DNA of 10,331 nucleotides from a virus. Every line of letters starts with the position of its first letter. Position 1 is the first letter of the stretch. This document shows positions 8,976 to 9,552 of this stretch, piece after piece. The notes under the pieces are model-generated. The model did no database searches, had not been told where the DNA came from, and saw only the letters and a list, made by a program, of their open reading frames with translations. Location of the stretch: the UHGV virus genome UHGV-1710946; one strand, given 5' to 3'. The position numbers and the translations under genes are program-made.

Positions 8976-9236
8976 ATGTTGCGCTTTACTGAGGAAGAGT
9001 TTCAGGCTTTTAGTGAGCGTCGAAATAAGGGGCGGTCCAGGCCAAAAACCAAAAAGGATCCATTCTTATCGCTTGCGCCGGTAAAAGAAGTTTCTCCACA
9101 TGCGAAGGCACTTGCAGCACTGGCAAAGAACCCAGACCTGCGCGACGGAAATTGCGAGCACTTCGAGCAGGTTTTCATTTTTGATTACTTCGAACGCAAG
9201 CACCCTGACATCTATGAGCTGTTGCATGCAACCTAA
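8976..9236 (+). CDS. N-terminal part of a VRR-NUC domain nuclease gene interrupted by a frameshift
   Basis: Ends ...EHFEQVFIFDYFERKHPDIYELLHAT*, which matches the first helix of VRR-NUC domains up to the conserved h-A-(P)-N-G-G junction. The domain continues in another frame (next feature). Confidence 0.5.
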   Translation: MLRFTEEEFQAFSERRNKGRSRPKTKKDPFLSLAPVKEVSPHAKALAALAKNPDLRDGNCEHFEQVFIFDYFERKHPDIYELLHAT

Positions 9237-9270
9237 CGGAGGGAAGCGTTCAAAAGCAACCGCCGGGAAA

Positions 9271-9552
9271 ATGAAGGCTGAAGGGCAGAAAAAAGGTTAT
9301 CCGGACATGAGTCTCGATAAAGCATGCGGTATTTATCACGGCATGCGAATTGAGCTTAAAGAACCAAATGGTAAAGCCCCGACGAAAGAGCAGATCGCCT
9401 GGATGCGCAGGCTTAGAGAGGAAGGCTACTACGTTGTTCTTGCGTATGGTGCAGAACAAGCGATTACCGCCATCCTGGAATACATAAGTCTTAAAAAGGG
9501 TGAGGCTATTGAGCATGTATTGAACGGCGATAAGTGGTTGCATGCTGCTTAA
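9271..9552 (+). CDS. VRR-NUC domain (PD-(D/E)xK-type) nuclease, C-terminal part; ATG 9271 is the first in-frame start after the frameshift
   Basis: MKAEGQKKGYPDMSL...GIYHGMRIELKEPNGKAPTKEQIAWMRRLREEGYYVVLAYGAEQAITAILEYI fits the VRR-NUC pattern (G-x-PD ... E-x-K ... Q-x2-W ... G-y-x-V). The same frame upstream reads PNGGKRSKATAGK, the conserved PNGG motif, directly after the stop of the preceding ORF. Confidence 0.6.
   Translation: MKAEGQKKGYPDMSLDKACGIYHGMRIELKEPNGKAPTKEQIAWMRRLREEGYYVVLAYGAEQAITAILEYISLKKGEAIEHVLNGDKWLHAA

Follow-up and report, generated by a model that had tools for sequence, protein, structure and literature searches.

In the stretch of DNA analyzed here (10,331 nt, referred to below as the window), the predicted nuclease gene pmgM is split by the loss of two bases. 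By alignment, this deletion is private, being seen in no other P1 relative that we examined. The frame break is present in the sequence: an upstream ORF in frame 3 (8976–9236, plus strand) encodes 86 aa ending in ...EHFEQVFIFDYFERKHPDIYELLHAT*, its stop being the TAA at 9234–9236, and frame 1 carries on as ...MQPNGGKRSKATAGKMKAEGQKKGYPD...IELK... as far as 9552. An earlier note on this DNA had described this switch from frame 3 to frame 1 correctly, but had attributed it to a single extra A. Removing one A within 9225–9237, where the window reads CATGCAACCTAAC, does give one continuous reading frame. Alignments with P1, P7, JL22, 673R5, and pMTY1586_IncY show, however, that the lesion is not a one-base insertion but a 2-nt deletion.

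The sequence CATGCAACGCCTAAC, which encodes His-Ala-Thr-Pro-Asn in P1, P7, JL22, and 673R5, has become CATGCAACCTAAC in the window (P1 ...GCAACGCCTAAC... vs. window ...GCAACCTAAC...). Alignment with four phages and two plasmids placed the missing bases, either CG or GC, between positions 9231 and 9233 (plus strand). Intact pmgM measures 579 nt in P1, P7, and JL22, as compared with 577 nt in the window, and the ancestral protein (192 aa) contains ...LLHATPNGG.... The 3' fragment (9226–9552, plus strand, frame 1) is a 108-aa ORF starting from the ATG at 9226, with homologous residues from Pro87 (at 9232) onward. The 86-aa ORF matched positions 1 to 86 of phrog_2363 (E = 7e-55) and the 108-aa ORF positions 86 to 192 (E = 6e-69), and both ORFs were 99% identical to the respective halves of intact P1 pmgM. 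Because the two pieces together cover a single PHROG family over its whole length, one half each, we are dealing with a broken gene and not with a chance juxtaposition. The sequence TTGCATGCAA at 9220–9229, a perfect 10-nt palindrome containing a SphI site, abuts the deleted CG on its 5' side; nothing ties it to the deletion.

Judged by its matches, the window belongs to a P1-like phage-plasmid (Punavirus), of which it represents a segment. Over its full length it matched P1, P7, JL22, RCS47, and others at 98 to 99%, as well as hundreds of P1-type plasmids of E. coli and Salmonella, the nearest record being pMTY1586_IncY (NZ_CP135714.1; 99.5%, 10 substitutions). The genes are, in order, an SPFH lipoprotein gene, tRNA-Ile, ban (dnaB), dbn, minus-strand tail/baseplate genes, pmgL, pmgM, and pmgN. 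Upstream of the pmgL-pmgM operon lies the C1 repressor operator O26 (former Op82; 8654–8670, minus strand), whose 17-mer AAAATTATTAGTGCAAT is the same as that of the operator annotated in P1 (NC_005856). The pmgL gene (8728–8973, plus strand, 81 aa) is intact, has the length and position of P1 pmgL, and shows no private difference. Directly 3' of pmgM is the C1 operator Oppp (former Op83; 9559–9575, minus strand), also with the same 17-mer as in P1, and further on an intact pmgN (9619–9774, plus strand), whose 156 nt are identical to P1 pmgN. Gene order and about 99% nucleotide identity at the pmgM locus are shared with P1, P7, and JL22, the flanks are nearly identical, and the C1 operators are the same. 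The interrupted gene therefore qualifies as an orthologue of P1 pmgM (P1_gp086, YP_006552.1; formerly orf83b) and P7 upf81.2, which have the same neighbors (gene 26, pmgL, and pmgN). The window allele differs from P1 pmgM in that CG is missing after codon 86, leaving an 86-aa product and, possibly, a 108-aa fragment in place of the 192-aa protein.

By sequence similarity, PmgM is a VRR-NUC / PD-(D/E)xK nuclease. Its closest counterpart is psNUC, a stand-alone VRR-NUC protein from Psychrobacter whose structure (PDB 4QBL) was reported by Pennell et al. in 2014 (PMC4103454). A phmmer search of the PDB with intact P1 PmgM retrieved 4QBL (E = 3.5e-17, residues 77–180). The Pfam gathering threshold for PF08774 was marginally missed, both by the C-terminal ORF (22.4 bits) and by the repaired protein (22.3 bits; cut-off 23.8 bits; E = 1.3e-4); the 86-aa ORF alone had no Pfam match, and NCBIfam gave zero matches for every form of PmgM. 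Precomputed PF08774 matches were nevertheless present on many homologues with 45 to 58% identity. An AlphaFold (AF2) model of the intact orthologue, made with 19 homologues (mean pLDDT 82.6), contains a helix (residues 60–75), three strands (83–85, 112–114, and 124–129), a second helix (138–149), and a further strand (153–158). Foldseek superimposed it on 4QBL with a TM score of 0.83 and an rmsd of 2.3 Å (E = 1.7e-9). The catalytic motif E-PD-(D/E)xK plus Gln is complete in PmgM (E61, P110-D111, E127-x-K129, and Q140), and D111, E127, K129, and Q140 are kept in at least 90% of the 19 aligned homologues, the identity of which goes down to 36%. This similarity, motif, and fold bear out the assignment to VRR-NUC that had been proposed in the earlier note.

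The first helix, which lies in the upstream ORF, also belongs to the VRR-NUC domain, since short stand-alone homologues (112–126 aa) open right at 'SEHxxQ'. The 86-aa ORF contains this EHxxQ helix, so that the domain does straddle the break as had been noted; a lack of resemblance between this ORF and the N-termini of VRR-NUC proteins would have spoken against such a view, but the resemblance was found. What PmgM shares with psNUC, as far as it is known from sequence and model, is the fold and the E-PD-ExK-Q active site. It differs from psNUC by an additional N-terminal extension of about 55 residues, which is conserved in P1-like phage-plasmids. This extension (residues 1–55; 8976–9140) comprises a helix, a basic stretch (residues 18–36, pLDDT <50), and a helix with an HAxALAxLxKNPDL motif, and it is conserved in homologues encoded on contigs of 80 to 110 kb, which is the size of a phage-plasmid.

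psNUC is a dimeric Holliday-junction-resolving enzyme whose E-PD-EXK site is stabilized by a conserved Gln. Like two phage VRR-NUC proteins, it binds four-way junctions as a dimer and cuts them symmetrically, and structure-selective cleavage by dimers is known for psNUC, stNUC, and saNUC (PMC4103454). By homology, PmgM is most likely a dimeric resolvase of Holliday junctions or branched DNA. Debranching of DNA before packaging has been proposed as a role for phage VRR-NUC proteins (PMC4103454), and the intact enzyme would usually serve to debranch replicated DNA ahead of headful packaging. T4 endonuclease VII, T7 endonuclease I, and lambda Rap, which are late or recombination-associated junction resolvers that clear branched DNA prior to packaging, are functional analogues only: they have other folds or belong to other families, and the role of PmgM is putative. 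P1 PmgM, to which older annotation still assigns a 'putative morphogenetic function', is clearly related to the Holliday-junction resolvase psNUC.

The position of the break makes it likely that the allele has lost its function. In the AF2 model, the break falls after Thr86, the PNGG loop beginning at residue 87. The 5' fragment (residues 1–86) holds the P1-type N-terminal extension, helix α1 (60–75), and strand β1 (83–85), together with the codon for Glu61 (9156–9158, plus strand), the first acidic residue of E-PD-ExK. The 3' fragment holds PNGG, Pro110-Asp111 (9301–9306), Glu127-x-Lys129 (9352–9360), and Gln140 (9391–9393). No single polypeptide encoded in the window would therefore carry the whole catalytic domain, Glu61 and PD-ExK being in different frames. 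The gene would be expressed from the C1-repressed late operon; with the frame shifted by the 2-bp CG deletion after codon 86, translation from the pmgM start would end at the TAA at 9234–9236, and the rest of the domain could be obtained only if ribosomes restarted at the ATG at 9226. This ATG lies 8 nt before the stop, with a weak Shine-Dalgarno sequence (GAG) 7 nt upstream and an 11-nt overlap with the upstream ORF. Since the active site is split across two ORFs, the pmgM allele of the window is most likely null or severely weakened.

We searched for the deletion among relatives with a 63-mer spanning the junction, against collections of plasmids and E. coli genomes. It was found in none of 487 plasmid and 488 E. 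coli records, in which the best identity was 96.9%, equivalent to the two gap columns. It was equally absent from 18 phage records, the longer form having been aligned for four and deduced from the match spans for 14. The exact junction 30-mer gave 0 hits in viral, genome, and JGI metagenome contig collections, and in about 15 billion proteins the 108-aa C-terminal product was encountered on no more than two contigs, both from ENA. Across Enterobacteriaceae, 80–110-kb contigs encode full-length homologues in which the catalytic residues are conserved, and distant homologues are all single polypeptides. Seen across these sequences, the nuclease family as a whole is clearly maintained. Orthologues consisting of two genes with the same boundaries, which would have argued against a broken gene, were not encountered outside two ENA contigs designated here L008 and L012.

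These two contigs were identified by looking up the exact 86-aa product. The search returned 16 contigs; among the 10 listed, two had the stop and the 2-nt deletion, while the remaining eight were wild-type and merely ended at codon 86. L008 (ERZ28620541, 'QINJ12-1_SAMN00792028_METAG-scaffold_1761') spans positions 3372–10331 of the window, with 16 N exactly at 5160/5161. L012 (ERZ1311649, 'NODE_5457_length_5171_cov_2.050430') corresponds to positions 5161–10331 at 100% identity and begins exactly at the gap in L008. In both, the junction is identical, lies inside the contig, and is free of N, and their naming styles suggest different pipelines. ENA gene callers annotated both ORFs on both contigs, including the exact 108-aa product. 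We infer that L008, L012, and the window come from the same gut sample with a coverage of about 2×, apparently from a human-gut cohort to judge from the record name. The three deletion-bearing assemblies almost certainly rest on the same reads and are therefore not independent confirmations of each other.

The end of L008 (3372) and position 5160/5161 coincide with the two other indel sites that distinguish the window from all relatives. At 5160/5161, in a minus-strand gene (4470–5471), there is an in-frame loss of 15 nt as compared with all relatives (333 vs. 338 aa); here, contigs were abutted across a gap in coverage. In dbn (2773–3798), a glycosyltransferase gene, 27 foreign nucleotides at 3376–3402 add nine codons (TITATTIHM). 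Neither the resulting chimeric Dbn (341 aa) nor the shortened 333-aa protein of the tail or baseplate region had an exact match when looked up. The 54-mer at 3372–3425 is 100% identical to positions 54483–54536 of OY725846.1 (Subdoligranulum variabile 'plasmid 12'), where a capsule-type locus carries it as the Tyr-rich 3' end (…GYYYSYNYSYENADR*) of a tyrosine-kinase gene resembling BY-kinases, and the end of that gene overlaps the start of a CpsB-like phosphatase gene. P1 dbn and the Subdoligranulum locus share exactly 21 nt, AACGCTGACCGATGACGGATT, and it is there that L008 ends. Exactly 21 nt shared by two genomes is what a de Bruijn assembly with k = 21 leaves behind when it joins them, and the insert is such a chimera from a Firmicute capsule locus and not biology. 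The sole private substitution relative to 18 relatives is a G at 3677, the middle base of a dbn codon. It probably reflects either a miscalled base at low coverage or a minor variant; all five relatives covering this position have T, and so does L008.

The earlier note had offered a decaying gene, a sequencing or assembly error, and programmed frameshifting as explanations; this set was the right one, but had been left unranked. We consider it probable that the private 2-bp deletion is real, having arisen recently by mutation among the plasmids of one human-gut sample. Such a deletion would be tolerated because pmgM appears dispensable for plasmid maintenance and for laboratory lytic growth. 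An artefact, in which the plasmid of the sample has an intact pmgM and the gap stems from a bad read or from gap-closing at near-zero coverage, seems less likely to us. It would fit with the coverage of about 2× (the k-mer coverage of L012 is 2.05), with the chimeric 27-nt insert at 3376–3402 in the same window, and with the private G at 3677, which is contradicted by L008 although this contig apparently comes from the same sample. It would also fit with the coverage gap at 5160/5161, marked by the 16 N in L008, the start of L012, and the 15-nt loss in the window, a gap that lies only 4 kb away. Both other indel flaws, however, differ in kind (a chimera through shared k-mers and abutted contigs) and sit at contig ends, whereas the deletion site is not a contig end in L008 or in L012. 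None of the isolate genomes, plasmids, and phages that we examined carries the deletion, and the plasmid has essentially no private mutation besides it, which reduces the prior probability that a private indel is real. Against this, 2-nt deletions are very rare in Illumina reads outside repeats, and the context here, ACGCC, is not a homopolymer and shows no tandem repetition. Furthermore, the SPAdes-style NODE assembly and the 'scaffold' assembly agree on the junction, and a de Bruijn assembler needs spanning reads. The same junction having been obtained by two apparent pipelines, its k-mers must have been present among the reads.

A genuine mutation is also favored over two readings that would give the break a function or another origin. 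That the split is functional, through a programmed +1 frameshift at ACC-UAA-C or through separate translation of the ORFs and reassembly into an active protein, is very improbable. The ORF beginning with the AUG at 9226 shares its first 11 nt with the upstream ORF, the AUG is preceded by GAG, and a start/stop overlap of this geometry permits translational coupling by bacterial re-initiation; the annotation of both ORFs by gene callers goes in the same direction. Yet the break was conserved in none of about 1000 related records (487 plasmid, 488 E. coli, and 18 phage records), and distant homologues are undivided. The sequence GCA ACC TAA C contains no homopolymer or other slippery run, no Shine-Dalgarno-like stimulator was found 3 nt upstream of it, placed as in prfB, and the tRNA-Thr on ACC would be unable to re-pair on CCU. 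As the break is not conserved and a slippery sequence is absent, programmed +1 frameshifting was ruled out. Two genuine genes were likewise ruled out, orthologues and distant homologues being single ORFs and both halves falling on one domain. There would be only a very slight chance that both halves are made (stop UAA at 9234–9236, restart at AUG 9226) and reassemble noncovalently into an active resolvase, the cut between β1 and the rest of the sheet parting Glu61 from PD-ExK. If this were true, nature would have produced a split PD-(D/E)xK nuclease; the allele is confined to one sample. Hardly any more credible is the view that the deletion is the scar of an insertion sequence that inserted and was then imprecisely excised exactly at this site. 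The eight wild-type contigs (among the 10 of 16 listed), which were assembled from different samples, all stop precisely at ...CATGCAACGC(C); but a look-up by the exact 86-aa product enriches contig ends at codon 86 by construction. In a control with N-terminal fragments of 82 to 90 aa, the numbers of contig-end partials were 6, 2, 0, 2, 5, 0, 0, 2, and 2, respectively, thus similar at most of these lengths, and members 88, 91, and 93 aa long likewise exist. A rearrangement junction shared by phage phi456 and the contigs L019 to L021 lies a few bases downstream (about 9239–9241), and phi456 has an IS1 within pmgM, but this IS1, whose target duplication is GCTGAAGGG, lies about 45 nt downstream, and neither an IS remnant nor a target duplication was found beside the deletion. 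An IS-excision scar or recombination hot spot was therefore dropped, partials occurring at most neighboring lengths from 82 to 93 aa and the phi456 junctions being elsewhere.

A private mutation in pmgM is in keeping with what is known of the gene in P1. In the P1 gene table, pmgM has an efficiency of plating (EOP) of 0.38 under CRISPRi and is scored as nonessential (PMC10695390); its loss would thus cause a mild plating defect at most. The same table marks it as nonessential in a deletion study (its reference 73, PMC9024508). In that survey, by Gonzales et al., the pmg and upf knockouts identified no essential genes other than pmgA, B, C, G, and R (PMC9024508); pmgM is not named in the main text of the survey, and its status there is taken from the table of PMC10695390. 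Other broken alleles exist. In phage vB_EcoM-673R5 (673R5), one nucleotide has been lost from an A6 run at about codon 106 and the gene is annotated as two CDS, pmgM of phi456 is affected by an IS1 insertion and an upstream rearrangement, and the database products P0014 and P0015 are, at the product level, further frameshifted forms of PmgM. These cases resemble that of the window in being independent loss-of-function lesions in the same nonessential gene, but their lesions and boundaries differ and none of them has the 2-nt deletion. The window allele is accordingly either an ordinary private loss-of-function lesion or a flaw of a very low-coverage assembly, and not a new mechanism. Its biological weight is small: it is one more broken copy of a known accessory gene that is listed as nonessential in P1 screens. 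It also calls for caution, since in a metagenome assembly with about 2× coverage that contains both a cross-genome chimera and a silently closed gap, small irregularities should not be taken as biology without the reads.

Two kinds of variant around pmgM were also observed. In phi456 (L018, 2440–3340) and in L019 to L021 (1–50), unrelated sequence replaces everything upstream of about 9239, the junction being of the type …ACCACTTCAGA|GGGAAACG…, and in the remaining pmgM of phi456 the IS1 has GCTGAAGGG duplicated at both its ends. In a few Logan assemblies, pmgM has lost its stop codon, which results in a PmgM-PmgN fusion (P0001 and P0003, 266 aa), with an ORF that crosses the C1 operator region into pmgN (…WLYAALNNKLIS…IGRIIVSSKANYESL…).
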